64,000 nucleotides of DNA, from contig JAUJNZ010000001.1 in the NCBI GenBank assembly GCA_030447905.1, positions 305,466 to 369,465 on the forward strand, read 5' to 3'. This DNA comes from Thermoleophilaceae bacterium. GTDB taxonomy: Bacteria; Actinomycetota; Thermoleophilia; Solirubrobacterales; Thermoleophilaceae. The position numbers were made by a program, and so were the translations under genes. Shown here one piece after another: positions 23,078-55,289 of this stretch. The notes under the pieces were generated by a model. The model was not told where the DNA came from. It did not search any database and was given only the letters and a program-made list of their open reading frames with translations. Numbering within the stretch: position 1 is the first letter of the stretch; each line of letters starts with the position of its first letter.

Positions 23078-23129
23078 CGAGCCGCGCGCGCTCACGGCCC
23101 GCCTGGCCCGACGGTGGACCGCCCCGCCC

Positions 23130-23354
23130 TCACAGCAACGGTTCCTGGCCACTTGGCGTGGGTTCGGCCCCCATCGTCCGCGAGGCGCGATCGAGCTCGC
23201 CGCCGGCGCGTGCGGCGAGCTCGGCGCAACGCTCGACGAGCTCGGCCGCCTCGTCGGGATCGAGACCGCCGGCCCGCAGGCGCTCCGCCGCCTCCTCGAG
23301 CTCTGCGATCGACGCGTCGAGGGCACTCAACCGCTCCGGGCCCCATCCGGTCAC
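23130..23354 (-). CDS. xseB: Exodeoxyribonuclease VII small subunit
   Basis: 74 aa. LSALDASIAELEEAAERLRAGGLDPDEAAELVERCAELAARAGGELD has the XseB helical-hairpin pattern. GTG at 23354 overlaps the nusB TGA. Confidence 0.75.
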   Translation of the reverse strand: MTGWGPERLSALDASIAELEEAAERLRAGGLDPDEAAELVERCAELAARAGGELDRASRTMGAEPTPSGQEPLL

Positions 23355-29222: not shown

Positions 29223-29326
29223 CGCAAGCGGTCCCGGCGCCGGACCGCCCGTGCCGCGGCGCCGGCCTCGCCTCACCGTCAGGCGATCGCGGCCGTCGAG
29301 CCGTGGCGGCTGGCCCGCGGCACGGC

Positions 29327-29875
29327 CTACGCGCCGTCGTAGGTGATCAAGCTGTGTACGTCGGCGTCGCCTAGGCGCTCGCGCCCGGCGAGGAATGCGA
29401 GCTCGATCAAAAAGGCGCAGCCCGCGACCTGCGCGCCGGCTCCGCGCACGAGCTCGCACAGGGCCCCCGCTGTGCCGCCGGTCGCCAGCAGGTCGTCGTG
29501 GACCAGCACGCGCGCGCCGCCTGCGAGCGCGTCTCGGTGGACCTCGAGCGCGTCGACCCCGTACTCGAGCGCATACTCGGCCGCGGTGGTCTCGAGGGGG
29601 AGCTTGCCGGGCTTGCGCGCGGGGATGAACCCGGCACCGACGCGCGCCGCCACCGCAGCCCCCAGTATGAAGCCACGCGCCTCGGCCGCGACGACGACCT
29701 CGACCTTGCGCTGGTCCGCGTACTCGGCCGTGAGCTCGATGACCCGGGCCAGCGCGCTCGCGTCGAGGAACAGCGGCGTGAGGTCCTTGAAGACGATCCC
29801 CGGCCGAGGGAAGTCCGGGATGTCGCGGACGTAGGCGCGCAGGTCGAGGTCGGCGGGTGCCGTCTCGGCTTCCAC
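29327..29875 (-). CDS. apt: Adenine phosphoribosyltransferase
   Basis: YVRDIPDFPRPGIVFKDLTPLF and the PRPP loop VLVHDDLLATGGTA. Confidence 0.92.
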   Translation of the reverse strand: MEAETAPADLDLRAYVRDIPDFPRPGIVFKDLTPLFLDASALARVIELTAEYADQRKVEVVVAAEARGFILGAAVAARVGAGFIPARKPGKLPLETTAAEYALEYGVDALEVHRDALAGGARVLVHDDLLATGGTAGALCELVRGAGAQVAGCAFLIELAFLAGRERLGDADVHSLITYDGA

Positions 29876-31698: not shown

Positions 31699-32313
31699 TC
31701 AGGCGCGGCGGCGGAGCCTGAACCCGTCGCGCAGGTAGAGCAACGTTGCCCACACGCTCAGGCCGAGACCGAGCAGCAGCAGCCCGCTGGCGACCCAGGT
31801 CGTCGAGACCATGGCCAAAAAGATCGAGAACATGGTCGGCCAGACTGCCCAGCGCCCGACCATCTTGATCTCGAAGTCGATGCCGCGGCGCAGAGCGAGC
31901 TCGGTTAGGACGAGCATGAAGAGCTCGCGGGCGGCGAGGGCGGCGAGCGCCCAGCGGGGGAGCAGCTCGAAGTGCCAGGACACGACCGCCCCGGCGAGCA
32001 CGAGCAGGCGGTCGGCGACGGGATCGAGCAGCGCCCCCAGCCGGCTGTACTGGCCGGTCAGGCGGGCCAGCATCCCGTCGAGGTAGTCGGTGGCCCCGAT
32101 GAAGGCGTAGAGCAGGGCCGCAGCGGGCGCACGCCCGTCCCCCGAGCTCAGACCCAGGACCAGGAACACCGGTATCAGGGCGAGCCGCATGTAGCCGACG
32201 GCGTTGGGAATCGTCCACGGGCGCAGCGGCTCGCCGCGGCGGGTGGCCTTGGGCAGACCGCCCGAGCGGTCGAGGCCGAGCAGCCGTCGGGCGGTCAGGG
32301 GGCCCTGCGCCAC
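31699..32313 (-). CDS. pgsA: CDP-alcohol phosphatidyltransferase (phosphatidylglycerophosphate synthase-like)
   Basis: CDP-alcohol motif DYLDGMLARLTGQYSRLGALLDPVADR. Multiple TM helices. The 5' end overlaps the proS stop by 19 nt, so the start is uncertain. Confidence 0.8.
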   Translation of the reverse strand: MAQGPLTARRLLGLDRSGGLPKATRRGEPLRPWTIPNAVGYMRLALIPVFLVLGLSSGDGRAPAAALLYAFIGATDYLDGMLARLTGQYSRLGALLDPVADRLLVLAGAVVSWHFELLPRWALAALAARELFMLVLTELALRRGIDFEIKMVGRWAVWPTMFSIFLAMVSTTWVASGLLLLGLGLSVWATLLYLRDGFRLRRRA

Positions 32314-33992
32314 AGCTCGAGCGCCTCCTGCGCCGCTCCCTCGAGGGAGAGAGTCCGGCGCTCACGACCGCGCCGCACCTGGGCCTCGACCTCCCTCGCC
32401 TCGACGCCCTTGCGCCCGACCGTGAGGCGTAGGGGGCAGCCCAGCAGCTCGGCGTCGGCGAACTTCTCCCCCGCGCTGCGCGGGCGATCGTCGAGCAGCA
32501 CGTCGAGGTCCGCGGCCCGCAGCTCGTCGTAGAGCCGCTCGGCCACCGCGAGCGACTCCTCGCCGGCCTTGCCGAGCGCGACGACCTCGACGTCGAAGGG
32601 CGCGAGCCGGCGCGGCCAGGAGATCCCCTGCTCGTCCGCGCTCTGCTCGACGGCCGCGGCGAGGATGCGCGCGAGGCCGATCCCGTAGGAGCCCATCCAG
32701 ACGTGTCGCTCGCTACCGCCCTCGTCGAGGTAGGTCGCCTCGAGCGGCTCCGAGTAGCGGGTCCCGAGCTTGAAGATGTTGCCGACCTCGATCGCCCGCT
32801 CGAGGTGGATCGACGCCCCCGCCGGACAGGTGTCACCGGCCTCGACCGAGCGCACGTCGGCCCACTCGGGCTCGAAGTCGCGGCCGGGCTCGACGCCGCG
32901 CAGGTGGCGGTCGGCCTCGTTGGCGCCGGCCACGAGGCCGCGCAGGTCGCGCACCGCCTCGTCGGCGACGACCGGCACCGGCGCCCCGACGGGCCCGATG
33001 TACCCGGGCACAGAGCGAAACAGTGGTTCGACCTCGTCGGCCTGAGCGGGTCGCGTGGCCTCACCGAGCGCATTGGCGAGCTTGATCTCGTTGAGGCGAT
33101 GGTCGCCGCGAGTGACCACGAGGACGGGCCCGCGTCCACTGGCGATCACCGGGAAGGCCTTGAGCAGGGCGGCGGCGGGGACGCCGAGGCCGCGCGCGAC
33201 GTCATCGATCGTGGTCTGGCCGGGGGTGTCCACCGGCTCGGGCGAGTCGAGGGCGGGCGGGAGTCCATTAACCGGACGCGGCGCCGCGCTCGCCACCTCG
33301 ACGTTAGCCGCGTAGCCCGCCGGCGACAGCGCGACCTCGTTCTCGCCGGCCGGACACGGGGCCATGTACTCGTGAGCGCCGAGGCCGCCCATCATGCCGA
33401 CGTCTGAGGCCACCCGGTGCCACTCGAGCCCGCAGCGATCGAAGACGCGGTCGTAGGCTTCGACGTGGAGCCCGTAGGAGCGGTCGAGGCCCTCGGCGTC
33501 GCGATCGAACGAGTATGAGTCCTTCATGATGAACTCGCGCGTGCGCAGCAGGCCCGCGCGCGGGCGCGGCTCGTCGCGCTCCTTGACCTGGAACTGGTAG
33601 AGGATCTGGGGCAGGTCGCGATAGGAGCGGACCTCGCGGGCCACGTGCCAGGTCAGGGCCTCCTCGTGGGTCATGGCCAGTACGTGCTCGGCGCCCTTGC
33701 GGTCTGAGAGCTTGAGCAGCTCCTCGATCGCATACCGGCCGGTGCGCCGCCACGGATCGGCGGGCTGCAGGACCGGGATGAGCATCTCCTGGGCGCCGAT
33801 TCGGTCGAGCTCCTCGCGGACGATCTGCTCGGCACGGCGGTGACAACGCCAGCCGGCGGGCAGGAAGGTCCACATACCCGTGCCGAGCTGGCGCACCAGG
33901 CCGGCGCGCACTAGCAGCCGGTGGGAGACCGCCTCGGCATCGGCAGGCGGCTCCTTGACGGTGGGCAGGAGGTACGAGGAGAGCCGCGTCAC
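32295..33992 (-). CDS. proS: Proline--tRNA ligase
   Basis: MTRLSSYLLPTVKEPPADAEAVSHRLLVRAGLVRQLGTGMWTFLP, plus class II motifs. Confidence 0.95.
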   Translation of the reverse strand: MTRLSSYLLPTVKEPPADAEAVSHRLLVRAGLVRQLGTGMWTFLPAGWRCHRRAEQIVREELDRIGAQEMLIPVLQPADPWRRTGRYAIEELLKLSDRKGAEHVLAMTHEEALTWHVAREVRSYRDLPQILYQFQVKERDEPRPRAGLLRTREFIMKDSYSFDRDAEGLDRSYGLHVEAYDRVFDRCGLEWHRVASDVGMMGGLGAHEYMAPCPAGENEVALSPAGYAANVEVASAAPRPVNGLPPALDSPEPVDTPGQTTIDDVARGLGVPAAALLKAFPVIASGRGPVLVVTRGDHRLNEIKLANALGEATRPAQADEVEPLFRSVPGYIGPVGAPVPVVADEAVRDLRGLVAGANEADRHLRGVEPGRDFEPEWADVRSVEAGDTCPAGASIHLERAIEVGNIFKLGTRYSEPLEATYLDEGGSERHVWMGSYGIGLARILAAAVEQSADEQGISWPRRLAPFDVEVVALGKAGEESLAVAERLYDELRAADLDVLLDDRPRSAGEKFADAELLGCPLRLTVGRKGVEAREVEAQVRRGRERRTLSLEGAAQEALELWRRAP

Positions 33993-34001
33993 GGCCCGAG
34001 T

Positions 34002-34883
34002 CTACCCGTGCGTCGCCTCGCCGCTCGGGGACTGAAACCCCTCGTTGAGCGCGCCCGACCGCAGGGGCTCCAGATCGATAGCGGTGCGCACGTAGCCGGC
34101 CTCGCGCAGAGCCGTGGCGATCGCCGCCCGGGCCGCTGGGGCGAGCGCGCGCTCGAGGTCGGCCGCCGGAAGCTCGAGCTTGCCGAGGTCCTCGTGGTGG
34201 CGCACGCGCAACACCGGGTAGCCGAGCGCCCGCACCGCGCGCTCGGCGCGATCGACCCGCGCGAGCCTGGCCGGCTCGACGCGCGTTCCGTAGGGCAGGC
34301 GGGAAGCCAGGCACGGGCTGGCGGGCTTCTCGGCGCTGGGCACGCCGAGGCGGCGCGCGAGTGCTCGCACCTCGGCCTTGCCGGCTTCCGCCTCGAGCAG
34401 GGGATGGCGCACCCCGTGCTCGGCGGCCGCGCGCAGCCCGGGGCGCCAGTCGCCGCGGTCGTCGGCGTTCGCCCCGGAGAGCAGGACCGCGAAGCCGCGC
34501 TCGGCGGCGAGCCTCCACAGCTCCCCGTATAGCTCGGTCTTGCAGTGATAGCAGCGGTCGCGAGCGTTGCGGCGGTAGCCCTCACGACCCAGCTCGTCGG
34601 TGGCGATCACCAGATGCTCGACCCCGATCGCCGCAGCCACCCCGCTCGCTCCTTCGAGCTCTCCGGAGGCCAGGGCGGGTGAGACCGCCGTGACCGCGAG
34701 GGCGCGGTCGCCGAGGGCTCGGGCGGCGAGGGCCGCGACCACGGAGGAGTCGACCCCGCCCGAGAAGGCGACCACGGCGCTCTCGAGCTCGGCGAGCGAG
34801 CGCTCGAGCCGCCCGCGCAAGGCGTCGACCGTGAGGTCGCTCGGCTCCCCGCCGGCGACCGGGAGCTCGCGCACCGAGCTCAC
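34002..34883 (-). CDS. larE: ATP-dependent sacrificial sulfur transferase LarE (PP-loop ATPase)
   Basis: GTG at 34883 (GTGA with the larC stop). PP-loop VAFSGGVDSSVV. RDRCYHCKTELY cysteine region. Follows larB-larC. Confidence 0.85.
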   Translation of the reverse strand: MSSVRELPVAGGEPSDLTVDALRGRLERSLAELESAVVAFSGGVDSSVVAALAARALGDRALAVTAVSPALASGELEGASGVAAAIGVEHLVIATDELGREGYRRNARDRCYHCKTELYGELWRLAAERGFAVLLSGANADDRGDWRPGLRAAAEHGVRHPLLEAEAGKAEVRALARRLGVPSAEKPASPCLASRLPYGTRVEPARLARVDRAERAVRALGYPVLRVRHHEDLGKLELPAADLERALAPAARAAIATALREAGYVRTAIDLEPLRSGALNEGFQSPSGEATHG

Positions 34884-36079
34884 GCTCGCTCTTCCTCCGC
34901 GAGCCAGCGCTGTCCGGCGGCCAGCGCCGCGGACCAGATCGACACGGTCGAGCGGCCGGTCCGCTCGGCGGCGCGGGCGCAGTCGTCGTGCTCGGGCGCG
35001 ACGTTGACCACGTCGCCGTCGAGGCGGCCGAGCTTGACCCGCACCGCCTCGCCGGAGACCTCGATGGCCCGCCACTCGCGCTCGAGCTCGACCCGCTCGA
35101 AGCGAGCCACGCGCACTCCGAGCGCGGTCGTCGAGCGCAGCAGCGCCTCCGCCACGGCGGCCTCGCGCTCGGGGCGTACGAGCGCCGAGACGATCACGCC
35201 CGGCCTGCCCTTCTTCATGCCCGCCGGCGTCGTCCACACGTCGAGCGCCCCCGCCGCCGTCGCGCTCTGCGCGGCGTCGGGCACGAGCTCCGGCGAGAGG
35301 TCGTCGAGGTTGGTCTCTACGAGCGACACCGGCTGGGTTGGGGCGCGCGGGGCGGCCTCATCCGCCTCCCCCAGGAGGACGCGCACCACGTTGGGCACGC
35401 GCCCGAGCTCGCGCGCGCCCGCGCCGTAGCCGGTGGCTTCGAGTCGCAGGGCGGGGAGCGGCCCGAAGCCCTCGACGAGCGCGCCGACCAGCGCGGCGCC
35501 GGTGGGGGTCACGAGCTCCTCGTCGCCTTCGACGCCGTGCAACGGCGCGCCCTCGAGCAGCGCGAGGGTGGCGGGAGCGGGCAGCGGCAGGGGTCCGTGC
35601 GCGCTCGCCACCACCCCGCGCGCGACCGGCAGCGGCGAGCAGGCGATTCGCTCCACCCCCAGCGACTCGAGCGCGAGGGCGACTCCGCAGACGTCGGCCA
35701 GCGCGTCGGCGGCCCCGACCTCGTGGAAGGTCACCTCCTCGGGCGCGATGCCGTGCACCCGACCCTCGGCGACGGCGAGCCGGTCGAAGGTCGTGAGCGC
35801 GCGCTCGCGCGCTCGCGGCGGCAGACGCGCGCCCTCGATCAGCTCGCGTACTTCGCGCGGGCCCCGGGGCGGTTGATCGGGCGGCCCGACGACCTCGACC
35901 CGCGCGGCGTCGAGCGGCCCGCGCCGCGCCCGCCCGATCCGCACCTCGAGGTCCTCGATGCCGAGGCGGGCGAGCCCGGACCGGACGAGATCGGCGTCGG
36001 CGCCGGCGTCGAGCAGGGCGCCGAGCAGCATGTCGCCCGCGACGCCGCCCACACAGTCGATGTAGGCCAGCCTGCTCAC
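34880..36079 (-). CDS. larC: Nickel-pincer cofactor nickel insertase LarC (DUF111)
   Basis: GTG at 36079 (GTGA with the larB stop). N-terminus LAYIDCVGGVAGDMLLGALLDAG is typical of LarC. Confidence 0.85.
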   Translation of the reverse strand: MSRLAYIDCVGGVAGDMLLGALLDAGADADLVRSGLARLGIEDLEVRIGRARRGPLDAARVEVVGPPDQPPRGPREVRELIEGARLPPRARERALTTFDRLAVAEGRVHGIAPEEVTFHEVGAADALADVCGVALALESLGVERIACSPLPVARGVVASAHGPLPLPAPATLALLEGAPLHGVEGDEELVTPTGAALVGALVEGFGPLPALRLEATGYGAGARELGRVPNVVRVLLGEADEAAPRAPTQPVSLVETNLDDLSPELVPDAAQSATAAGALDVWTTPAGMKKGRPGVIVSALVRPEREAAVAEALLRSTTALGVRVARFERVELEREWRAIEVSGEAVRVKLGRLDGDVVNVAPEHDDCARAAERTGRSTVSIWSAALAAGQRWLAEEERA

Positions 36080-36855
36080 GCCGCTGGCGCGCTCGCCCGG
36101 GCGATCCGCGCCGCGATCGTGCCCGCCCCGAAGCCGTCGTCGATCCCGACCACCGCGAGCCCGGCCGCGCACGAGGCCAGCATCGCCAACAGAGCCGAGA
36201 GGCCGCCAAAGGCGGCCCCGTAGCCCGCGCTCGTCGGGACGCCGATCACCAGCGCGGCGACGAGCCCGCCGACCACCGAGGCCAGCGCGGCGTCCTGGCC
36301 CGCCACGACGACCACGCAGTGGGCGCGCTCGAGGTCCTCGAGCGCGGTCCCAAGCCGCGCGATCCCGGCCACCCCGATGTCGCGCTGGACCGCCACCTCG
36401 GCCCCGAGCAGGCGCGCGCGGATCTCGGCCTCGCGCACCACCGGTCCGTCGGCGGTCCCGGCGGAGACGATCGCCACCTGCCCGGCGACCGCAGGGACCG
36501 CCCGCGCCACCCACGCCAGGCGGGCGCGTTCGTCGAGCTCGGCCTCGCCCGGGGCGGCTCGGGCTACGGCGGCCCGGGCGGCCTCGTCGGCGCGCGTCAC
36601 GAGCACGCTTCCCACCCCGTCGGCGAGCATCGCCGTGACGATCGCCTCGATCTCCCCGGGCGACTTGCCCTCGCCGAGCACGGCCTCGGGCGCACCCTGG
36701 CGCAGCTCCCGGTGGGTATCCACGCGCGCGAAGCCGAGGTCGCGGAACGGCAGGTGCTGGAGCTCTGAGAGGGCGGCTTGTGCGGCGACCTCCCCCCGCT
36801 CGACCGACTCGAGCAGGGCGAGGAGGTCGGCCGGCGAGGTCGGAGCCGACGTCAC
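36076..36855 (-). CDS. larB: Pyridinium-3,5-biscarboxylic acid mononucleotide synthase LarB (AIR-carboxylase-like)
   Basis: GTG at 36855 (GTGA). FARVDTHRELRQGAPEAVLGEGKS, IVSAGTADGPVVREAE, VVVAGQDAALASVVGGLV...GVPTSAGYG. Confidence 0.85.
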   Translation of the reverse strand: MTSAPTSPADLLALLESVERGEVAAQAALSELQHLPFRDLGFARVDTHRELRQGAPEAVLGEGKSPGEIEAIVTAMLADGVGSVLVTRADEAARAAVARAAPGEAELDERARLAWVARAVPAVAGQVAIVSAGTADGPVVREAEIRARLLGAEVAVQRDIGVAGIARLGTALEDLERAHCVVVVAGQDAALASVVGGLVAALVIGVPTSAGYGAAFGGLSALLAMLASCAAGLAVVGIDDGFGAGTIAARIARASAPAA

Positions 36856-37637
36856 CGGCGCCCCGCCGCCCCGGCCAGCGCGCCGATCGCCGCGCCCACG
36901 CGCTCGGTGAACTCCTGGGGCTCCTCGCCCGCCAGCGGCTCGACGGCAGGGCCGAAGCGGACCTCCGTCCGCCCGCGCCGGGTCACCCCGCGCCCCTTGG
37001 GCATCAACAGCCCCGTTCCGCTCACGTGCACCGGCACCGCCGGCGTGCCCGTCGCCACGCACAGCCGCCCGACCCCGCCGCGCAGGCCCCCGAGGCCGGA
37101 GGTCCGGGTCGCCTGCGGATAGATGAGCACGTTGGACCCGCCGCGCAGGTGCTCGGCGGCGGCGGCCAGCCCGCGCCCCTCGCTCCCGCGGTCGAAGGGA
37201 AAGGTGTTGATCCACAGCGACGCCATCAGCGCGGTGCGGCGGCTCGCGTAGAAGCGATCGCTCGCCGCCCCGACCACGGTTCGCATCCGCCACACGCGCG
37301 GCAGCGCCCATAGGACCAGCGGAGTGTCGACGTCGCTCGAGTGGTTGGGGGCGATCACCGCCGGCTGGGGCGCGTGCAGGAGGTCGTCGGCCCCGCTGAC
37401 CTTCGGGCTCGTGACGACGCGGGTGAGCGGAAACAGCAGCGACTGCTGGAGGCCCTCCCGGGCGAGGGAGGCGCGCCGGCCGCGCAGCCATGGCTGGTCG
37501 GCCACTTCGGCGGCAGCGCTCCAGGGATCGGGCCCGCCGCGGCGGGTGCGCCAGCGCGCGGGCGACCGCGCCGATCCGCCGGTCCCGCCGTCTCGGGGCG
37601 GCCCCGCCAGGCGCTCGAGCAGGCGACCGCTCCTCAC
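36852..37637 (-). CDS. Lysophospholipid/glycerol-phosphate acyltransferase family protein (PlsC-type, HX4D)
   Basis: HX4D block PNHSSDVD, then FPFDRG and IYPQATRT blocks. GTG 37637 overlaps the LarA-like TGA, and the codons between 37505 and 37637 keep high GC3. Alternative GTG at 37505. Confidence 0.75.
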   Translation of the reverse strand: MRSGRLLERLAGPPRDGGTGGSARSPARWRTRRGGPDPWSAAAEVADQPWLRGRRASLAREGLQQSLLFPLTRVVTSPKVSGADDLLHAPQPAVIAPNHSSDVDTPLVLWALPRVWRMRTVVGAASDRFYASRRTALMASLWINTFPFDRGSEGRGLAAAAEHLRGGSNVLIYPQATRTSGLGGLRGGVGRLCVATGTPAVPVHVSGTGLLMPKGRGVTRRGRTEVRFGPAVEPLAGEEPQEFTERVGAAIGALAGAAGRR

Positions 37638-39298
37638 TCGACCTCGCAGTAGAAGAGCGGCGGGCACCCGAAGTGGGTGATCGAGGGATCGCGCCCCACG
37701 ACCTGCTCGGCCATCTCGAGCGCGTCGAGCATCGTGTCGGCCCGGCGAAAGCCCATCCGCCGGCACGCCTCGCGGTCCCCGCCGACGAAGATCACCTCGC
37801 CGACGTGCTCGAGCGCGTGGGCGCCCCAGTACCACATGTAGAAGGGATGGACGCCGTGGTAGGCGTGGGATGTGCGATAGAGGTGGCGATACCACTCGTC
37901 CTCGGCGTAGTCGCGCTCGAAGCGGCGCTCGAGCTCGGCCGGGTCGGTGGTCTCGGCGAGCACCTCCTCGTAGAAGTCGATGTAGGAGGGGTGATGCACC
38001 GGGTGGAAGTCGCGCGGCACGGGATGGGTGAAGATCAGCGCGCCGCCCTCGCGCACGAGCGGTCGTCCCTGGTACAGGTTGAAGAAGTACCCGAGTCCCA
38101 GGCACATGACGAGGATCGGGTTGAGGATCGAGTTGACGTTGTAAGGACCGATGTAGGGAAGCCCGGCGGTGACGACGTCGGACTGTCCCTCGACCCGAAC
38201 CGCCTGCTGCTCGGCGAGGCGCTCGAGCGCCACGGCGTGGGCGGCGTCGACCGCGCCCCCCGTCACCGAGGTGACCGCGTACGGCGCCGACATGCGACTG
38301 AAGGCGGTCCGCCGGGCGCGGACCGGCATCCGGTCGACCGCCCGCTTGACCCCCGCGAACACGACCTGCTCGCGCGGCGTCCACAGGTGCTCGGGCTTGC
38401 CCAGGAAGCGCAGCGGCTCGGCGTACATGGCGTCGTTGAGGGTGGCCTCGAGGTGGAAGACCGGCACCGCCCGCTCGATCAGCTCGCCCTGACGCCCCGA
38501 GGAGTGATGGAGCTCGGAGTGGTCGGGATCCATGAACGAGCGCGAGTGACGAAGCGTGTGCGTCGTGTGGTGGGCGCTGATCGACCGGTAGGTGCCGAGC
38601 CCGATCGCCGCCGACTTCGGTCCGCCCTGCAGGGGCGCGGTGACGAGGTGCACGTACACGAGCAGGTCGGACTCGGCGGCGCGGCGGTTGAGGGTCACCG
38701 GCTCGCCGTGGTCGGTCTCGCCGATGACGACGTTTCCGTCGGGGTCCTCGGCGTCGTGGTTGTAGAGCTCGTCGGGACCGAAGGCGTCGAAGACCGCGGG
38801 TCCGAGCGCGTGTCGCAGCTCGGCCGGGGTCATGCGCCGGTGCAGGGCAAGCGCGGCGATCAGGTGGATGTCGTCGACGCCGGCGCGGTAGGCACGCTCG
38901 AGCACGCGCTCGACGATCCGCCCGCGGACGTCCGGCGCGCGCATCGGCGGCAGCGGCACCGACAGGTCGTCGAAGGCGATGGTGAGCCGCATCCCGGCAC
39001 GCAGGCGCGCGTCGAGCGGGTCGGCGCCGAGCGGCTCGTCGAGCGCGCGGTCGATCGCCGCGTCGAGATCGCCGAGCCCCTTGAGCGGCGGGGGGGCGTG
39101 CACCACCCGCGACCCGACCGGCAGTCGCTCGAGCCGAAAGGACTCGCCGGCGTGGAAAAGGGTCGGTGGCGACTTCACGGTGACCTCGGACACGCTCGCC
39201 CCCCGCTCGGCGGCGGGTCGTCGCCGCGCGGGGCGCCCGTCGGCGCTCGGCGCGGGCGGCTCGACCATCGTCGTTCGCGGCCTCGGGGCGAGCGTCAT
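37634..39298 (-). CDS. LarA-family (nickel-pincer nucleotide dependent racemase/epimerase-like) protein, oversized (554 aa)
   Basis: ATG at 39298 shares its A with the upstream TGA. DUF2088/LarA_N-like region. LIAALALHRRMT, VHLVTAPLQGGPKS and an HH 15-16 residues after the Lys match my recollection of LarA His108, His174, Lys184 and His200. Confidence 0.75.
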   Translation of the reverse strand: MTLAPRPRTTMVEPPAPSADGRPARRRPAAERGASVSEVTVKSPPTLFHAGESFRLERLPVGSRVVHAPPPLKGLGDLDAAIDRALDEPLGADPLDARLRAGMRLTIAFDDLSVPLPPMRAPDVRGRIVERVLERAYRAGVDDIHLIAALALHRRMTPAELRHALGPAVFDAFGPDELYNHDAEDPDGNVVIGETDHGEPVTLNRRAAESDLLVYVHLVTAPLQGGPKSAAIGLGTYRSISAHHTTHTLRHSRSFMDPDHSELHHSSGRQGELIERAVPVFHLEATLNDAMYAEPLRFLGKPEHLWTPREQVVFAGVKRAVDRMPVRARRTAFSRMSAPYAVTSVTGGAVDAAHAVALERLAEQQAVRVEGQSDVVTAGLPYIGPYNVNSILNPILVMCLGLGYFFNLYQGRPLVREGGALIFTHPVPRDFHPVHHPSYIDFYEEVLAETTDPAELERRFERDYAEDEWYRHLYRTSHAYHGVHPFYMWYWGAHALEHVGEVIFVGGDREACRRMGFRRADTMLDALEMAEQVVGRDPSITHFGCPPLFYCEVE

Positions 39299-40446
39299 CA
39301 CTCCGTGCGCAGGTCGAAGACCGTCCTGACCTGGCCCGAGCGGGCCGCCCGCGGGGCCTCCGCGAGCGCGCGAGAGTGGTCGCTCAGATGCCAGCCGTCG
39401 GCCACGAGCCGCCCGGTCCCCAGCCGACCGGCGAGGTCGATCGCCGCGGGGAAGTCGCCGCGGTAGCCATAGGCGCCGCGCAGCTCGAGCTCTCGCTGCC
39501 ACGCGAGCGAGAGGTCGGCGCGCACCTGCCCGGGCATACCCACGAGCACGACCGTACCGCGCGGGCGCGTGACCGTCACCGCCGCCTCGAGCGAATCGCC
39601 GCTGCCGACGCAGTCGAGCACGCGATCGAGGCCGCCGAGCAGGAGCTCGCGCCCGAGGTGGCCGACGAGCCTCCGGGCGCCGGTCAGCCGCGCCGCCTCG
39701 ACCGGCAGCTGCTCGGGCGCACAGGTGTGGTCGGCGCCGAGGCGGCGCGCGGCGTGCGCCTGGGCGGGGTGCTTTGCCGTGCACAGTACGACGGCATCCG
39801 GCGCGAGCTCACGCAGCGCCGCCACGCAGAGGAGCCCGATCGTCCCCGCCCCGATCACGCCCACCGCCTCGCCCGGACTCGGCGCCGCCGCCCGCGCGGC
39901 GTTGAGCGCGCACGCCAGCGGCTCGACCAGCACCGCATCCTCGTCGGAGAGCTCGGCCGGCACGGCGTGCAGCTGCGAGTGGTGGGCCACGAGCCCCTCG
40001 CTCCAGCCCCCGCCGGTGTCGCGGCAGTAGCCGATCTGCAGGCCCGCCGAGACCTCTCCTTCGACGGTATTGCGACACAGGGCCGTGAGTCCCTCCGCGC
40101 ACTCCGTGCACTCGGGCTCGGCGCCTCGCACCACGCACGAGAGCGCCGGCTCGACTACGACCCTCTCACCACGACGCTCCCCACCCGCGATCTCGCCGAC
40201 GATCTCGTGACCGGGGACGAACGGCGTCGAGGTGAGCGTCCCCAGGTACGGCGACGCCGAGCCCGAGAAGAGCGCCTGATCCGATCCGCAGATGCCGCTC
40301 AGCCTGGGGCGGACCGCGAGCCAGTCGGCGTTCGGTGGCCGTGGGGGCGCCATCCGACGCAGCGTGAGACCCCCCTCCCCCGCCCGGCGGGAGACCCGCG
40401 CCGCCGCGTGCCGCGCCACGGACGGCGTGTACTCGAGGGCGAGCAT
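39298..40446 (-). CDS. Zinc-dependent medium-chain alcohol dehydrogenase family protein
   Basis: GICGSDQALFSG...PGHEIVGEI catalytic Zn site. Cys cluster CVVRGAEPECTECAEGLTALC. Rossmann motif VIGAGTIGLL. Confidence 0.85.
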   Translation of the reverse strand: MLALEYTPSVARHAAARVSRRAGEGGLTLRRMAPPRPPNADWLAVRPRLSGICGSDQALFSGSASPYLGTLTSTPFVPGHEIVGEIAGGERRGERVVVEPALSCVVRGAEPECTECAEGLTALCRNTVEGEVSAGLQIGYCRDTGGGWSEGLVAHHSQLHAVPAELSDEDAVLVEPLACALNAARAAAPSPGEAVGVIGAGTIGLLCVAALRELAPDAVVLCTAKHPAQAHAARRLGADHTCAPEQLPVEAARLTGARRLVGHLGRELLLGGLDRVLDCVGSGDSLEAAVTVTRPRGTVVLVGMPGQVRADLSLAWQRELELRGAYGYRGDFPAAIDLAGRLGTGRLVADGWHLSDHSRALAEAPRAARSGQVRTVFDLRTE

Positions 40447-40447
40447 G

Positions 40448-42790
40448 TCAGGCGCCGGCCGCGACCGGCGCCGGCGGACGGGTCCGGGCGCCGGGCTCGG
40501 TGGCCCAGGTCAGCACCGGCCACCCCCGCCGCCGGGCCTCGCGGGCGAGGCGGAAGTCCGGATTGACCGAGTGGGCATGGCCGACGACCTCCAGCAGCGG
40601 CAGGTCGGAGACGCTGTCGCCGTAGGCGTGGCAGTCCGCGAGCGCGACCCCGCGGTCGGTCGCCAGGCGCGTGGCCAGGGCGGCGCGGGCCTCCGCGGTC
40701 AGCGGCGGCTCCTCGAGCTCGCCGGTGAAGACCCCGAGCTCCTCGCGCAGCCGCGCGGCGACGAGCTCGTCGCCCAGCGCCCGGAGGGGCGCGACCAGGA
40801 AGTCGACCGCGCCGGTCAGGAGGACGATCCGGTCGCCGCGGCGGCGATGGGCGCGGATGCGGCGCACCGCGGCCTGCTGGAGGCGGGGGAGGATGTGCTC
40901 CTCGAGCGCGCTCTCGGCCTCGGCGCGCAGCTCGGCGGCCGGCAGACCGCGGTAGGTTCGGTAGAAGTCCCGGTTGAAGGCCGCACGCGACCGGCGGTCG
41001 GCGAGCGCCCAGCCGGGCGCCCGCGCGGCCACCCCGGCTCCCCACACGACCCGGTCGAGCCCCGGCATGCCGCGCGAGCGCAACCACGCGTAGAAGTGGG
41101 CGACCGTCGTGTCGACGACCACGCCCTCGACATCGAAGAACGCGAGCGCGGGGGGGCCGTCCGGCAGCGCTCCGTCCCCCGACCCGAGCGCCCGGGCGGG
41201 ACCGGTCGCGCGCGGGGGGCGGGGAGGGCGCACGAGCTCGCGTAGGGCTGGGAGGTGGACCCGATCCAGGTAGTCGGTCCAGTCGATCGCCGCCGTGTCG
41301 AAGGACAGCCGCTCCCGGTCGGAGGGCGACAGGCGACCGAGCAGCTCGCACGTGCCGCGATCGTCGAAAATGCAGTCGAGCTCGACGTAGGGACCGTATA
41401 TCTCGGCGAGGCGTCGCAGCCGCTCGACCCGGCGGCGCTCGACGTGCAGACGCCGCTCGGCGTCGTCGACGCGAGGCACCGGGACGCGGTCGAGCAGGCG
41501 CCGACCCGTGCGCAGCGCGCGCTCGGCGCGGTCGAGGGCTCCCATCACTCGCGCCCCCGACGCGTAGCGCATGTCGGAGAACTCGATCGGGGCGCCGTCC
41601 TCGTCGGGCAGCGGGCGGGCCCGGAAGTGGTCGGTGACCGTCCGGCTGATCTCTGCGAGCGTGATCGGGTTACGCCTCCCGCTCGCGAGCGCGAGCGTCC
41701 GCGGGCTCGGCATCGGCGGATGCGCCGCCGCGACGACGCAGGCGTTGGCCACTAGATCGACGGGCACGACGTCGAGCACGCCGGAGGGGTTGCCGGGCAG
41801 GCGTGAGGCCAGGCCGCCCGCATACGCCAGGATGATCGGGTCGGCGACCTTGATGCCCTCGAGCCATCCCGGTCTTGGCTCGTGCAGGGCCGACTCGATG
41901 ATCGCCGGACGCACGAACGTGAGCGAGGTCAGGTTCTGGGCGCACAGGGCCCGCTCGGCGAGGCCCTTCGACAGCGAGTAGCCGTCGGCCCAGCCGAGCG
42001 TACGGCAGCGGCGCCGCCCGCGCTCGACGAGCTCCGACGCGATCCAGGCGCGGCGCAGCTCCTCGGCGCGACGACCGACGGGCAGCGAGCCGGCCGGACC
42101 GAGCTCCTGCCTCGCCTCGCGAGCGAAGCGCTCCTGGTGGTCGGGCAGGCGGGACTCGGCATCGAGGTCGCGCCGCCACGCGCGCGCCGCGTCGAGCTCT
42201 GAGTCGAGATCGAGCTCGGGCTCCTCGGGCGACTCCCCGGAGGGTCGCTCGAGCACGAGCCCGGTGCGGTTGCCCGCCGCGTACGCGGTGGAGACATGCA
42301 CGAGCGCGGGCTCTGCGGCCCCGCTGGCGCGGGCACCCGCCCGCAGGGCCTCGACCAGCCGCAGCGCCCCGAGTGCGTTCATATCGATGATCTCGTCGAG
42401 GGGCTGCTCGAAGGAGACCGAGGCCGCGCAGTGGATCGCCACGTCGATCCCGCCGAGCGCGTCGTCGCCCTCGGGCCGCCCAAGCGCGTCGGCCGTGAAG
42501 TCACCGGCGAGGGCACGCAGGCGCCCGGCCGCGAGCGCGCTGTCGGCCGACTTGCGGACGTGGTCGAACGCGTCGCTCGCGAGGACGTCGGAGCGCAGGC
42601 GCTCGAGCGCCCCCTCGTCGTCGCCGGCCCGGAGCACAAGCCGGATCTCGCGCAGATCGGAGGCTTCTCGGAGGAGGACGCCGAGCACTGCCTTGCCGAG
42701 AAAGCCCGACGCCCCGGTCAAGAGGAGGGTCCGGCCCGCGAGCCGCCCGGCGATCGTCTCCTGGTCGCTCCCCGTCACCGCTTTGCGCAC
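40448..42790 (-). CDS. Fusion protein: fatty acyl-CoA/ACP reductase (NAD_binding_4 + sterile-like region) + C-terminal HAD-IB (SerB-like) hydrolase domain
   Basis: LLLTGASGFLGKAV, YSLSKGLAE (YxxxK), IYGPYVELDCIFDD. HAD motifs FFDVEGVVVD ... LLTGAVDF ... YGDSVSDLPLL. The track start 42907 overlaps tetR and crosses low-GC3 palindromic DNA, so I prefer GTG 42790 (alternative 42778). Confidence 0.75.
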   Translation of the reverse strand: MRKAVTGSDQETIAGRLAGRTLLLTGASGFLGKAVLGVLLREASDLREIRLVLRAGDDEGALERLRSDVLASDAFDHVRKSADSALAAGRLRALAGDFTADALGRPEGDDALGGIDVAIHCAASVSFEQPLDEIIDMNALGALRLVEALRAGARASGAAEPALVHVSTAYAAGNRTGLVLERPSGESPEEPELDLDSELDAARAWRRDLDAESRLPDHQERFAREARQELGPAGSLPVGRRAEELRRAWIASELVERGRRRCRTLGWADGYSLSKGLAERALCAQNLTSLTFVRPAIIESALHEPRPGWLEGIKVADPIILAYAGGLASRLPGNPSGVLDVVPVDLVANACVVAAAHPPMPSPRTLALASGRRNPITLAEISRTVTDHFRARPLPDEDGAPIEFSDMRYASGARVMGALDRAERALRTGRRLLDRVPVPRVDDAERRLHVERRRVERLRRLAEIYGPYVELDCIFDDRGTCELLGRLSPSDRERLSFDTAAIDWTDYLDRVHLPALRELVRPPRPPRATGPARALGSGDGALPDGPPALAFFDVEGVVVDTTVAHFYAWLRSRGMPGLDRVVWGAGVAARAPGWALADRRSRAAFNRDFYRTYRGLPAAELRAEAESALEEHILPRLQQAAVRRIRAHRRRGDRIVLLTGAVDFLVAPLRALGDELVAARLREELGVFTGELEEPPLTAEARAALATRLATDRGVALADCHAYGDSVSDLPLLEVVGHAHSVNPDFRLAREARRRGWPVLTWATEPGARTRPPAPVAAGA

Positions 42791-42820
42791 CCTCTCGAGA
42801 GGTCGACTGCGCGCGCACTC

Positions 42821-42836
42821 TACTGACAAGTCAGTA
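42821..42836. promoter_or_regulatory. Candidate TetR operator: 16-bp palindrome TACTGAC-AA-GTCAGTA in the divergent promoter region
   Basis: Perfect 7-bp arms. It overlaps a TATACT -10-like hexamer on the minus strand and TATAAA on the plus strand. It lies in the only AT-rich stretch between the tetR GTG (42855) and the operon GTG (42790). Confidence 0.5.
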
Positions 42837-42854
42837 TAAAAGTCGAAGCACCTC

Positions 42855-43490
42855 GTGAGCTCCGCCGCCTCCATCCCCCTCCGTCCCGCCTCCTCGCGGG
42901 ATCTCATCCTGCTCGCAGCCCGCGCCGAGTTCGCCGATCACGGCTTCGACGGAGCGCGGCTGCAGGCCATCGCCGCCCGGGCAGGGGTACGCCACCCGAC
43001 GCTGCTCTACCACTTCGAGTCGAAGGAGCTGCTCTACCGCGCGGTGATCGAGTCGGTCGTGGGCGACTGGGCGGTCGAGACCGAAGCCGCGATCTCGACC
43101 GGCCTGCGCGGCTTCGACCAGGTCGCCGCGCTCGTCGACGCCGGCTTTCGGTTCTTCGAGCGAAACCGGGACTTCGTGCGCATCGTCCGACGCGAGGCCA
43201 TCGAGGGGGGCGGGCGCATGGAGGCCCAGATGGCCGAGTTCGTACGGCCGTTCCTCGAGGACGCCGTGCGGTTTCTGCGCCGCGAGATGCGCGGTGGGCG
43301 CCTGCGCCGCCACGACCCGCTCGAGCTGATGCAAGTGATCTACGGCGCCGTCTTCACCTACTTCTCGGACGCGCGCTTTCGCGCCAACCTCACCGGCGAG
43401 GACCCCCTGGACGCTCGGGCGCTGCGGCGGCACGAGCGAGCGCTGATGAAGCTGCTGGGGGCCGCGCTCGAGCCGGCGACGGGTTCGTGA
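42855..43490 (+). CDS. TetR/AcrR-family transcriptional regulator
   Basis: N-terminal HTH RDLILLAARAEFADHGFDGARLQAIAARAGVRHPTLLYHFESKELLY. Confidence 0.9.
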   Translation: MSSAASIPLRPASSRDLILLAARAEFADHGFDGARLQAIAARAGVRHPTLLYHFESKELLYRAVIESVVGDWAVETEAAISTGLRGFDQVAALVDAGFRFFERNRDFVRIVRREAIEGGGRMEAQMAEFVRPFLEDAVRFLRREMRGGRLRRHDPLELMQVIYGAVFTYFSDARFRANLTGEDPLDARALRRHERALMKLLGAALEPATGS

Positions 43491-43529
43491 AGCCGGAGGG
43501 CCGAGCCTGACACTCTTGCCCGTCTGCGC

Positions 43530-44036
43530 TTACCGGGCGAGAGCGTCCCGCTCGCCCCGCCGCGCCAGAGCGATCCCGCCGACCAACAGGAGCGCCCCGA
43601 GGGCGAGGAAGGCTAGGTCCAGGAGCGGGGCGCCGGCCCTGACGTGGTGGATTGCGAGGATGTGGTGGTCGACCACACCCTCGACGAGGTTGAAGGTGCC
43701 CCAGCCGGCGAGTATGAGGCCCAGGAGCAGGTGCCCGGACCAGGCGACACCCGACGCCACCGCGCGCGCCAGGAGAACCAATCCCGCCGCGGTGAAGAGC
43801 CACGTCGAGGCATGGAAGAGGCCATCCCACAGGGTGTTGACCTCGAGGCCCCCGACTGTGGTGGCGGGGTAGCTGCCCTCGCTGGTGAGCATGTGGTGCC
43901 ACTGGAGGATCTGGTGCAGCACGATCCCGTCGACGAAGCCGCCGAGGCCGAGTCCCAGAAGGAGGCCGGGGGCGGTGAGCGAGGCGCGTCGGTGCGAGGG
44001 GGGTGAGGTTGCGCTGGGTGCTGCCTTCGTTGCCAC
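43530..44036 (-). CDS. DUF2243-like integral membrane protein
   Basis: GGFVDGIVLHQILQWHHML ... TLWDGLFH ... FNLVEGVVDHHILAIHHV, with 4 TM segments. GGAAGGAG lies 6 nt before the GTG. Confidence 0.6.
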   Translation of the reverse strand: MATKAAPSATSPPSHRRASLTAPGLLLGLGLGGFVDGIVLHQILQWHHMLTSEGSYPATTVGGLEVNTLWDGLFHASTWLFTAAGLVLLARAVASGVAWSGHLLLGLILAGWGTFNLVEGVVDHHILAIHHVRAGAPLLDLAFLALGALLLVGGIALARRGERDALAR

Positions 44037-45616: not shown

Positions 45617-46927
45617 CTACCCGCGCTTGAAGCGCCGCCCGGCCGTCGGCGAGGCGGTCTCGTCGAGGCGCAGGCGCTCAGCCGCCGCGACGGGCAGGGC
45701 GATGACCTCGCCGTCGCCGTTCGGCGCCGCGCCGGCCTCGGCCTCGGCCGCCGCCTGCGCGGCCTCCATCGCCGCCAGCCGCTCCGGGGTCAGCTCGCCC
45801 GCGTTCTCGTCCTCGATGCGCCGCAGCCACTCGGCCCCCTCCGCGGACTTGCGCTCGTCGACCACGGTCTGGCCCACCTGCAGCGACCTGTCGATCTCGG
45901 CGAACAGCTCGTCCACGAGGCGCTCGGTCGGGACTTTGCGCAGCGGCTTTCCGTGGGCGAATATCAACCCCTCGTCCTTGGCGCCGGTGATCCCGAAGTC
46001 GGCGTGCGAGGCCTCGCCGATGCCGTTGACCGCGCACCCGAGCACGGCGACCTCGACCGGGCTCTCGTAGCGCTCGAGGCGCCGCTCGATGTCGGCGACC
46101 ACCGTGTCCATGTCGAACTGGAGGCGCCCGCACGTCGGGCAGGCGATCAGCACCGGCCCCTTCTCGCGCAGCTTGAGGGCCTTGAGGATCTCCCAGGCGA
46201 CCTTGACCTCCTCCTCGGCGTGGAAGGTCGAGAGCGAGATCCGCATCGTGTCGCCGATGCCGTCGGCGAGCAGCGTGCCGAGGCCGACCGCCGACTTCAG
46301 AGAGCCGGTCCACCTGGTGCCGGCCTCGGTGATCCCGAGGTGCAGCGGGTAGTCGATCCGCTCGGAGAGCAGGCGGTTCGAGGCGATCGTGTTCGGCACC
46401 GAGGTCGACTTGATCGACACCTTGAAGTCCTCGAAGCGCAGCGACTCCATGAGCTCGACGAACTCGACGGCGGCGCGCACGAGCGCCTCGACCGAGTCCT
46501 CGCGCTCGAGCTCGTGCAGGTGCCTGGGCAGCGAGCCCGAGTTCACCCCGATCCGCATCGGCACTCCGGCCGCCCGGGCCCGGTCGGCGACCTGCCTGAC
46601 CTTCTCGGGACCGCCGATGTTTCCCGGATTGAGGCGGATGCAGTGTGCGCCGGCGTCGATCGCCTTGAGCGCGAGGGTGTGGTTGAAGTGGATGTCGGCG
46701 ATCACCGGGATCGGGGAGTCGACGACGATCTCCTTGAGGGCCTCGATGTCCTTGTTGCGCGGCACGGCGACGCGGACGATGTCCGCCCCCGCCTCGGCGA
46801 TGCGGCGGATCTGGTCCTTCGTCGCCTCGAGGTCGGCGGTCTCGGTCTTGGTCATCGACTGCACGGCCACGGGCGCGCCGCCCCCGATCGGAACACTCCC
46901 GACGTGGATCTGGCGCCTCGATGCCAC
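45617..46927 (-). CDS. ispG: 4-hydroxy-3-methylbut-2-en-1-yl diphosphate synthase
   Basis: VGSVPIGGGAPVAVQSMTKT, IRVAVP, INPGNIG-like LNPGNIGG, CPTCGR [4Fe-4S] region. Ala/Glu-rich C-terminal tail. Confidence 0.93.
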   Translation of the reverse strand: MASRRQIHVGSVPIGGGAPVAVQSMTKTETADLEATKDQIRRIAEAGADIVRVAVPRNKDIEALKEIVVDSPIPVIADIHFNHTLALKAIDAGAHCIRLNPGNIGGPEKVRQVADRARAAGVPMRIGVNSGSLPRHLHELEREDSVEALVRAAVEFVELMESLRFEDFKVSIKSTSVPNTIASNRLLSERIDYPLHLGITEAGTRWTGSLKSAVGLGTLLADGIGDTMRISLSTFHAEEEVKVAWEILKALKLREKGPVLIACPTCGRLQFDMDTVVADIERRLERYESPVEVAVLGCAVNGIGEASHADFGITGAKDEGLIFAHGKPLRKVPTERLVDELFAEIDRSLQVGQTVVDERKSAEGAEWLRRIEDENAGELTPERLAAMEAAQAAAEAEAGAAPNGDGEVIALPVAAAERLRLDETASPTAGRRFKRG

Positions 46928-46936
46928 GGGCCGAGT

Positions 46937-52395: not shown

Positions 52396-52434
52396 CCCGA
52401 CGAGTGTAGGTGGGCTCGCCGGTGCGCCGACGGC

Positions 52435-55277: not shown

Positions 55278-55289
55278 CGCTCGCCAGCC

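Follow-up and report, generated by a model that had tools for sequence, protein, structure and literature searches.

What would genes for assembling a nickel cofactor be doing in the same row as enzymes that handle fatty acyl chains? This question is raised by a locus on contig JAUJNZ010000001.1 (assembly GCA_030447905.1) of a Thermoleophilaceae bacterium, which we analyzed within a window of 64,000 nucleotides, whose numbering is used throughout. Seven minus-strand genes, arranged head to tail and tightly packed from 34002 to 42790, encode a fatty acyl reductase fused to a HAD-IB domain (FAR-HAD), a Zn-dependent alcohol dehydrogenase-like protein (ADH), a homologue of the lactate racemase LarA (LarAH), an acyltransferase (AT), and LarB, LarC, and LarE, and a TetR-family regulator is encoded divergently. 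We consider it likely that this TetR-controlled, coupled operon is the actinobacterial, split-gene counterpart of the elb ether-lipid operon of Myxococcus xanthus, with synthesis of the nickel-pincer nucleotide (NPN) built in, and that LarAH acts as a nickel enzyme in the ether-lipid pathway.

The genes follow one another almost without interruption. FAR-HAD (40448-42790) ends with a TGA at 40448 and is separated by a single nucleotide from the ATG of ADH (39298-40446) at 40446; the A at 39298 is common to the TGA of ADH and the ATG of LarAH (37634-39298), in a TGATG overlap; and four GTGA start/stop overlaps then join LarAH to AT (36852-37637) at 37634-37637, AT to larB (36076-36855) at 36852-36855, larB to larC (34880-36079) at 36076-36079, and larC to larE (34002-34883) at 34880-34883. 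Packing of these genes as a unit is well beyond the chance expectation. The G+C content at third codon positions (GC3) is at least 0.90 over the initial 240 nucleotides of each operon gene, which makes the proposed starts credible and the sequence coding from the earliest codons, whereas the in-frame stretch 5' of the FAR start has a GC3 of 0.74 and is not coding-like, so that the start of FAR-HAD is placed at the GTG at 42790. These junctions and coordinates had all been given correctly in the preliminary description of this DNA, and support is found for its proposal that the genes form a single coupled operon controlled from a divergently placed TetR gene. A simple scan of 33800-43600 for sigma-70 consensus promoters and intrinsic terminators returned neither, a result that is uninformative for this organism.

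The TetR gene (42855-43490, plus strand; Pfam TetR_N 2e-13, TetR_C_29 3.9e-12) and FAR-HAD are divided by a 64-bp divergent promoter/operator spacer at 42791-42854, which the end at 42854 given in the preliminary description takes in. The G+C content of the window is 70 to 77%, and it falls from 72 to 77% around this spacer to 55% inside it; the spacer also holds several palindromes, and both features had been noted previously. One of them is a perfect 7+7 inverted repeat, TACTGAC-AA-GTCAGTA, at 42821-42836. Its general form, TACTGAC-NN-GTCAGTA, is present only here in the window, with 0.02 matches expected by chance, and it occurs once each in the TetR-FAR spacer of seven Thermoleophilia loci (L001, L003, L004, L005, L007, L081, and L082), where the flanking sequence has diverged around the conserved palindrome; L006 has a version with one mismatch. 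As the palindrome is unique and recurs in otherwise diverged TetR-FAR spacers, it is taken as the TetR operator, and control of the operon by TetR is thereby well supported in the sense that conservation singles out an operator candidate. It is probable that TetR would release this palindromic operator upon binding a lipid-type ligand. A scan of one genome per species for related loci gave at least 600 encoding stretches, of which the best 80 were kept and searched by tblastn with the window proteins; a homologous divergent TetR gene lies upstream of FAR in roughly half of them.

A likely answer as to what the lipid-type genes and LarAH do together comes from M. xanthus. Its elb locus (MXAN_1527-1531) encodes a short-chain dehydrogenase/reductase (SDR), a HAD protein (PF12710), a Lar_N protein of 536 amino acids (MXAN_1529), the 1,470-amino-acid ElbD, and a further SDR. 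ElbD (MXAN_1528) combines NAD_binding_4, Sterile, AMP-binding, PP-binding, and Acyltransferase domains, and MXAN_1529, encoded between the HAD gene and elbD, is ElbC. LarAH matches ElbC at 48% over 513 amino acids (E 1e-175), and the HAD domain, fused to FAR in the window, matches ElbB at 40% over 219 amino acids (E 1e-40). The two ends of ElbD have separate counterparts, with FAR matching its N-terminus at 30.5% over 557 amino acids (E 2e-51) and AT its C-terminus at 34% over 163 amino acids (E 1e-12), where the motif NHSSDVD of AT is matched by NHSSHLD of ElbD. Relatives that are 43% and 32% identical to LarAH are found in elbC-elbD(-elbE) or elbB-elbC-elbD arrangements. From this component-by-component homology, we infer that the window operon is a split-gene, actinobacterial version of elb, and 1-O-alkyl glycerol lipids would then be its expected products. 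M. xanthus requires elbD for both its alkyl and its vinyl ether lipids (Lorenzen et al. 2014; reviewed in PMC9131029).

The two operons share the same four protein families, and in both the HAD comes before LarAH and the acyltransferase after it. They differ in that the window operon has no AMP-binding/acyl carrier protein module, in that FAR is fused to HAD and not to the acyltransferase, in that a Zn-dependent ADH stands in place of the two SDRs (ElbA and ElbE), and in that a TetR gene and larBCE are attached. Pfam searches detected no AMP-binding or PP-binding domain in the window operon, and across the 80 loci there was one short match of acyl-CoA synthetase type, at the edge of L011, while SDR matches were rare and far from the cluster. 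Group 15 of the LarA homologues classified by Desguin et al. (2020) consists of myxobacterial proteins and includes MXAN_1529. Judged by sequence, ElbC and LarAH14/15/16 are thus the same protein family, and this identification is new.

The association of LarAH with lipid-type genes extends well beyond this genome. The 80 loci are from Thermoleophilia, many Acidimicrobiia, Dormiibacterota, one Chloroflexi metagenome-assembled genome (MAG), Thermomonospora, and Jiangellaceae, and the order and strand FAR-HAD, (ADH), LarAH, AT are kept in all 80, wherever the contig reaches; AT is directly 3' of LarAH in every locus with a contig long enough. Such synteny means that the association is not due to chance, and the lipid-type partners named in the preliminary description, the domains of which Pfam and NCBIfam profile searches confirm, are conserved beside LarAH across phyla. 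ADH is present in 55 loci and missing from 25 (for example, L010, L019, L038, and L071), many of them from Acidimicrobiales, with no ElbA/E-like SDR substitute adjoining the cluster in those 25, and the conserved core is therefore FAR-HAD, LarAH, and AT only. The HAD domain is present in all 80 loci. It is also the most constant partner, at 88 to 100%, in groups 14, 15, and 16 in Table S1 of Desguin et al. (2020), which lists COG0204 (AGPAT), COG0560 (HAD), and COG1063 at 88% and COG3320 at 50% for group 14; COG0451, COG0560, and COG1022 for group 15; and COG0204 and COG0560 for group 16. The entries are all given there as "unknown function," with neighbors including AGPAT, HAD, Zn-ADH, thioester reductase, and acyl-CoA synthetase, so the raw gene co-occurrence was already tabulated in 2020 and is not new. 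The constancy of HAD as a partner of LarAH points to a phosphorylated substrate or product.

LarAH itself, with 554 amino acids and a Pfam Lar_N domain, is assigned to the LarAH14/15/16 family and is the ElbC orthologue. It scores 813.7 bits against a cutoff of 740 with NF052592 ("NPN-dependent hydroxyacid isomerase, LarAH14/15/16 family"), covering model positions 2 to 520 of 520, and it falls below the cutoffs of the true racemase models, with 67.5 against 460 for NF033504 (lactate) and 74.1 against 500 for NF052593. Its best database matches are Thermoleophilaceae MAG proteins that are 85 to 100% identical, and it shares 54% identity with LarAH14 of Frankia. Residue conservation was assessed by alignment to solved LarA structures and to 43 diverse homologues, and D110/D111, H153, K228, and H243/H244 are invariant in the latter. 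Among these, D111 corresponds to LarA D72, which contacts the NPN ribose; H153, in the motif ALHRR, to the initial catalytic histidine H108; K228, in GGPKS, to K184, the thioamide tether to NPN; and H244, 16 residues after K228, to the nickel ligand H200. The protein is therefore LarA-like with the NPN lysine and nickel histidine, as had been proposed.

Two other features of LarA are lacking. Arg75, which binds the substrate carboxylate and the NPN phosphate in LarA, is replaced by V114 here and by I, L, or V in groups 14 and 15, and His174, the second catalytic histidine, sits in an insertion that is missing from LarAH. Without Arg75 and His174, LarAH fails the defining features of a 2-hydroxy-acid racemase. 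The NCBIfam family name would agree with LarAH being an ordinary racemase of this kind that has its lipid neighbors by chance, a reading that we hold to be extremely improbable in view of the synteny in all 80 loci and in myxobacteria, the missing carboxylate-binding arginine, and the score of 67.5 bits against the true-LarA cutoff of 460. Biochemistry points the same way, as none of the seven racemase/epimerase assays applied to the purified LarAH14 of Frankia showed activity (Desguin et al. 2020). The same work describes groups 14, 15, and 16 with the signature found in LarAH, namely, D, a hydrophobic residue for Arg75, H, a gap at His174, K, and H; the window differs from that listing in that larBCE are not among the listed close neighbors and in that the window clade has a distinct loop.

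The predicted structure agrees with the sequence assignment. An AlphaFold (AF2) model of LarAH (pLDDT 89.4, pTM 0.88) has the two-domain LarA fold, and all 19 significant Foldseek matches in the PDB are LarA-family proteins, with target template-modeling (TM) scores of 0.60 to 0.85. The best match is 9q3k (LarA_Sp), and LarA_Sp and LarA_Bw reach target-normalized TM scores of 0.83 to 0.85. No solved structures are closer to LarAH than those of these two proteins (PDB 9q2u, 9q3k, and 9q3j; Gatreddi et al. 2025), at a phmmer E of 3.5e-30 and an identity of just about 20%, and, like LarAH, they have a single catalytic histidine and are longer than LarA. They are suspected of acting on a phosphorylated substrate, with a chemistry that is unidirectional or other than racemization (Gatreddi et al. 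2025). Unlike LarAH, their subfamily has a lysine at the Arg75 position and glycolytic or sugar gene neighbors in place of lipid genes. When 1.84 billion cluster representatives were searched exhaustively with phmmer, 348 clusters matched at E <= 1e-30 and 2,268 at E <= 0.001, so that the family is moderately large, with full-length members down to about 32% identity. From the residues and the modeled fold together, LarAH is a LarA-fold enzyme that probably binds NPN.

NPN is made with nicotinic acid adenine dinucleotide (NaAD) as the starting material by LarB, LarE, and LarC and is tethered to a lysine of the client enzyme. By their profile scores, the three proteins encoded downstream of AT in the window are equivalogs of these NPN-building enzymes, in agreement with the initial assignment. 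LarB, the carboxylase/hydrolase acting on NaAD, scores 225.7 bits against a cutoff of 175 with NF033503. LarC, the CTP-dependent nickel insertase, is a fusion of LarC1 and LarC2 (Pfam Ni_insertion 1.9e-125; 196.5 against 90 for LarC1 and 132.4 against 50 for LarC2, with TIGR00299 and NF052512). LarE, the ATP-dependent sulfur insertase, scores 301.9 bits against 150 with TIGR00268 and has the PP-loop SGGVDS, CYHC, and a third cysteine in SPCLASR. This CXXC-C pattern is the motif of catalytic [4Fe-4S] LarE proteins (PMC9283937), and from it LarE is assigned to the iron-sulfur type and not to the sacrificial, single-cysteine type of Lactiplantibacillus plantarum; the name of the NCBIfam LarE model nevertheless says "sacrificial." The larABCE system of L. 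plantarum is thus similar in its larB, larC, and larE equivalogs and in a client with the LarA fold, the NPN lysine, and the nickel histidine. The window differs from it in having a client that is not a lactate racemase (67.5 against 460 bits), a CXXC-C LarE in place of a sacrificial one, a LarC that is one fused polypeptide, and no nickel transporter gene in the operon.

Does LarAH then use the cofactor that its neighbors are predicted to make? Lar genes within 10 kb of the cluster are confined to a minority of loci. In the window and in three loci with LarAH proteins 90, 86, and 77% identical to its own (L081, L082, and L083, respectively), larBCE follow AT directly, and this built-in downstream larBCE occurs in one Thermoleophilaceae clade. 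They are upstream of the cluster in L006 and also in L083, they are on the opposite strand in L062 (a Thermomonospora contig), and L080 has larE alone near the cluster. No available evidence speaks more strongly for the use of NPN by the LarAH family than these repeated juxtapositions in different arrangements, taken with the invariant NPN residues. It could be argued instead that LarAH works without NPN in most lineages, as a subunit with a structural or binding role or by means of a different cofactor, and that larBCE in the window clade serve a different client, such as ADH or FAR, in the manner of the NPN-binding aldo-keto reductases (AKRs). The rarity of adjacent larBCE in the common loop class (3 of 78 loci), the loss of the lysine in Frankia group-16 paralogues, and the precedent that NAD(P)-annotated oxidoreductases beside larBCE can be NPN enzymes would all suit this proposal. 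We nonetheless judge it very unlikely, as the lysine, nickel histidine, ribose aspartate, and catalytic histidine are invariant in 43 diverse members, FAR and ADH both retain standard Rossmann glycine motifs, and the independent larBCE insertions are always beside a LarAH-containing cluster. The AKR precedent also changes an assumption of the preliminary description, that LarA-family enzymes are the only users of NPN. This is outdated, as the AKR-type NphT was reported in 2026 to use NPN for intermolecular hydride shuttling, in a paper that also cites an NPAD-dependent ornithine cyclodeaminase.

The lipid-type enzymes indicate what kind of molecule may be handled. FAR-HAD consists of FAR at residues ~1-530 and HAD-IB at ~531-780 (Pfam NAD_binding_4 5.7e-43, Sterile, and HAD PF12710 1.5e-27; TIGR01490 at 104 bits against a cutoff of 98). 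The FAR part is full length, with the motifs TGASGFLGK and YSLSK, and its closest solved structure is the fatty acyl-CoA reductase 7eoz (E 5.5e-60). ADH (Pfam ADH_N and ADH_zinc_N) resembles the polyol/ketose reductases, its closest structures being the NADP ketose reductase 1e3j, L-idonate 5-dehydrogenase, and sorbitol dehydrogenase; these relatives work on polyols, at a secondary hydroxyl or a ketone, and not on fatty aldehydes. As ADH reaches no equivalog cutoff, these PDB and NCBIfam matches only hint at polyol-type specificity. AT is a PlsC/AGPAT-like acyltransferase of the glycerolipid type (Pfam PF01553 4.4e-11; HX4D motif NHSSDVD).

A FAR and an acyltransferase could in principle yield wax-type esters, and so the operon might make a lipid without an ether bond, such as a fatty alcohol or wax-type ester, an acylated polyol phosphate, or a long-chain diol lipid, with LarAH isomerizing a polar precursor. 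The resemblance of ADH to polyol dehydrogenases would fit such a product, as would the link of the structurally closest LarA subfamily to sugar-phosphate metabolism and the case of Pontiella, which has elbD homologues and in which ether lipids were not detected. This alternative appears unlikely to us, given that four of the components have homologues in an operon in which elbD is genetically required for ether lipids and that AT is of the HX4D glycerolipid type and not of the wax-synthase type.

An ether-lipid product had also been anticipated in the preliminary description, by way of the route from dihydroxyacetone phosphate (DHAP), for which it named FAR, a DHAP/G3P acyltransferase, alkyl-DHAP synthase (AGPS), and a ketoreductase as the parts. 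The ether-lipid assignment gains support from the component homology to elb, but that parts list does not turn out to be the defining one. The AGPS homologue is genuine, located at 27522-29459 with E 1e-89 to PDB 2uuu (Dictyostelium ADHAPS), at a distance of about 4.5 kb past larE, and it is syntenic in L081, and the organism therefore probably has an AGPS route as well, as M. xanthus does. It is not a conserved partner of the cluster, as no AGPS-like gene, pgsA, or cdsA lies within 10 kb in any of the 80 related loci. The genes pgsA and cdsA, which had been pointed out as lying nearby, are thus not conserved partners either, and cdsA, 11.5 kb distant, belongs to a housekeeping run of cdsA, dxr, ispG, the operon, and proS. 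The AGPS route of M. xanthus and of eukaryotic peroxisomes resembles the window operon in having a FAR, a GNPAT/AGPAT-type acyltransferase, and a ketoreductase-type partner and differs in that AGPS is part of the conserved unit in 0 of 80 loci here. In M. xanthus, the AGPS operon (MXAN_1676-1674), with AGPS, FAR-AT, and SDR, is separate and contains no LarA homologue or HAD gene (PMC9131029). When the elb and AGPS operons are compared, FAR, AT, and SDR are common to both, and by analogy HAD and LarAH would hold the place of AGPS.

Within the same DHAP-type route of FAR, acyltransferase, AGPS, and ketoreductase, it had been suggested that LarAH, as a racemase or epimerase, could invert an (alkyl/acyl)glycerol phosphate or a 2-hydroxy lipid at its C2 carbinol via a keto intermediate. 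The LarA fold and NPN residues of LarAH are compatible with this, and so is the AGPS homologue near larE in the window and L081. Inversion needs two acid/base residues, however, and the family is without the canonical second histidine and the carboxylate/phosphate-binding arginine. A candidate for the former exists in the window clade, in which the loop at residues 217-228 (window 38615-38650) reads VYV-H217-LVTAPLQGG-P-K228, and H217 is 11 residues before the NPN lysine, near the canonical -10, which makes it a putative equivalent of His174. The rest of the LarAH14/15/16 family, including the myxobacteria, has VYV-N-x-N-LVxMDGG-H-K, with asparagine at the K-11 position in most of the family, and His174 is a gap for groups 14 and 15 in the alignment and table of Desguin et al. 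(2020). Asparagine at K-11 and the gap at His174 mean that inversion by two bases is not a property of the family. The histidine-containing loop ("class H") is found in the window, L081, L082, and L083, which are exactly the Thermoleophilaceae clade with larBCE downstream, and also in L001, whose contig ends before downstream larBCE could be judged. With AGPS, pgsA, and cdsA missing from all 80 related loci and the M. xanthus AGPS route encoded apart from any LarA homologue or HAD, we regard C2 inversion as quite unlikely.

Returning to the elb-type reading, a sequence of steps can be proposed for the operon products. FAR would act on a fatty acyl thioester, which it would reduce to the aldehyde or the alcohol, and NPN-loaded LarAH, together with the HAD domain, would shuttle a hydride in a redox-neutral step on a phosphorylated glycerol-lipid intermediate, which would enable or accompany formation of the ether; this step would not be a hydroxy-acid racemization. 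Where present, the Zn-dependent ADH would act at the C2 keto or hydroxyl group of the glycerol backbone, AT would attach the ester chain, and removal or other handling of the phosphate would fall to the HAD domain, with a 1-O-alkyl(acyl)glycerol(-phosphate) lipid as the product. The actual reaction of LarAH is our inference. In M. xanthus, ElbD-dependent fatty aldehyde is seen and fatty alcohol is not, and the steps from there to the alkyl ether lipid are undescribed (PMC9131029).

It could further be speculated that ElbC/LarAH14-15 and HAD are the missing AGPS-independent enzyme that forms the ether bond in aerobic bacteria, by a "borrowed-hydrogen" chemistry of NPN, although we hold this more specific idea to be tentative and on balance doubtful. 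NPN would take a hydride from C1' of the fatty alcohol or from C2 of glycerol, the fatty aldehyde would combine with a hydroxyl of glycerol phosphate into a hemiacetal or oxocarbenium, and return of the hydride would give 1-O-alkyl-glycerol phosphate or 1-O-alkyl-DHAP with no net change in redox state. The single catalytic histidine, the missing carboxylate site, and the precedent of hydride shuttling by NphT fit this scheme. If it were true, lipid metabolism would gain its first NPN enzyme in LarAH, which would also be the first such enzyme to form a C-O bond.

Several observations weigh against the predicted role of LarAH in an NPN-dependent ether-lipid pathway. Only 3 of the 78 loci of the common loop class have larBCE within 10 kb, and no lar genes were found within 10 kb of the M. 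xanthus elb locus. A 34%-identity relative of LarAH (L085, GCA_014730295.1) is without lipid neighbors and adjoins a GH38 mannosidase. In the HAD domain (~40451-41200), motif I (~41111-41140) reads FFDVEGVV, with D-x-E replacing D-x-D, and the lysine of motif III is an arginine, so that phosphatase activity is not assured. ElbC, moreover, is not among the elb genes with a described disruption (PMC9131029), and according to a sponge-symbiont preprint, its gene-cluster families GCF 5-10 harbor solely elbD and elbB homologues, from which it follows that ElbC may not be obligatory for ether formation.

What the locus offers in return is a connection between two literatures that each hold half of the picture. 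The nickel-pincer field has a family, LarAH14/15/16, that fails every hydroxy-acid assay tried, and the LarA literature searched makes no mention of lipids for it. The lipid field has an operon, elb, that makes alkyl ether lipids without AGPS, in which the ether-bond step and the role of ElbC are not known; ElbC is described as "a protein of unknown function" (PMC9131029), and recent ether-lipid surveys name elbB, elbD, and elbE or elbB-elbE and do not discuss ElbC. The window operon ties both together, as it couples an ElbC orthologue to the genes for its presumed nickel cofactor. In full-text literature searches, no paper contained both "ether lipid" and "lactate racemase," none was found that links NPN to ether lipids, and the sole paper mentioning both elbD and nickel was a carotenogenesis review; this agrees with the statement in the preliminary description that no NPN-dependent lipid pathway has been described, with the qualification that the gene co-occurrence had been tabulated by Desguin et al. 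(2020).

With this operon, it becomes directly testable what makes the ether bond of the ElbD route. A further consequence is the prediction of nickel-dependent ether-lipid synthesis in several soil and marine groups with the cluster in their MAGs or genomes (Acidimicrobiia, Thermoleophilia, and Dormiibacterota) and in Myxococcota, and gene surveys of ether-lipid producers, now based on ElbD, Agps, and Ger, should weigh ElbC and larBCE too. The literature found on ether lipids in Thermoleophilia or Acidimicrobiia consists of community surveys only. For Rubrobacter, Sinninghe Damste is said to have described, in 2023, abundant 1-O-alkyl glycerol lipids and a putative elb-like operon.

Some further observations concern individual components. 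Most actinobacterial HAD domains fused to FAR have FDLENT or FDVEG in motif I, and FDVDGT, as in M. xanthus ElbB, is found in just 7 of 80; the form D-x-E-G-T we take to be typical of the enolase-phosphatase E1, which acts on an alpha-keto phosphate. L083 (ENA ERZ27252443 k141_238583) has larB-larC-larE on both sides of the core, the downstream copy having the gene lengths of that in L082, and this could be either a genuine duplication or an assembly chimera. The contig of L085 carries histone-fold, Ras/Arf small-GTPase, and leucine-rich repeat (LRR) genes and may be from an Asgard-like archaeon. In L088, from a marine metagenome, a relative with 34% identity is part of a 947-amino-acid gene call that also includes a chlorophyll a/b-binding domain; it is probably of algal origin and has no lipid neighbors. 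Two apparent Rosetta-stone fusions, P0035 (ADH and LarAH, 820 amino acids) and P0109 (LarAH and AT, 791 amino acids), were rejected, as their off-frame Arg/Pro-rich linkers mark them as frameshift or gene-call artifacts.

As regards the surroundings, AGPS, pgsA, FHA, MerR, phosphoribosyltransferase (PRTase), and sortase genes were considered as conserved partners and gave zero matches in the 80 loci, and other window genes (an amidase and an MFS-type open reading frame [ORF]) gave matches in 1 to 7 loci with inconsistent arrangement. When ORFs within 4 kb of the core were clustered across all loci, TetR was the sole recurrent partner, and the remainder were lineage-specific housekeeping synteny or spurious high-GC ORFs. 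In the window, the operon and TetR gene are placed between a sortase gene and proS, among housekeeping genes of isoprenoid and phospholipid metabolism that include a polyprenyl synthetase (19049-20209), a squalene/phytoene synthase (22214-23326), ispG (45617-46936), dxr (51238-52434), and cdsA (54375-55289). The gap between the stop of larE and the GTG of proS (32295-33992) is 9 nucleotides (33993-34001) without a terminator-like site, and proS may be read through from the operon in this window. In L081, the relative with 90% identity, the corresponding gap is 588 nucleotides and contains an ORF of 82 amino acids.

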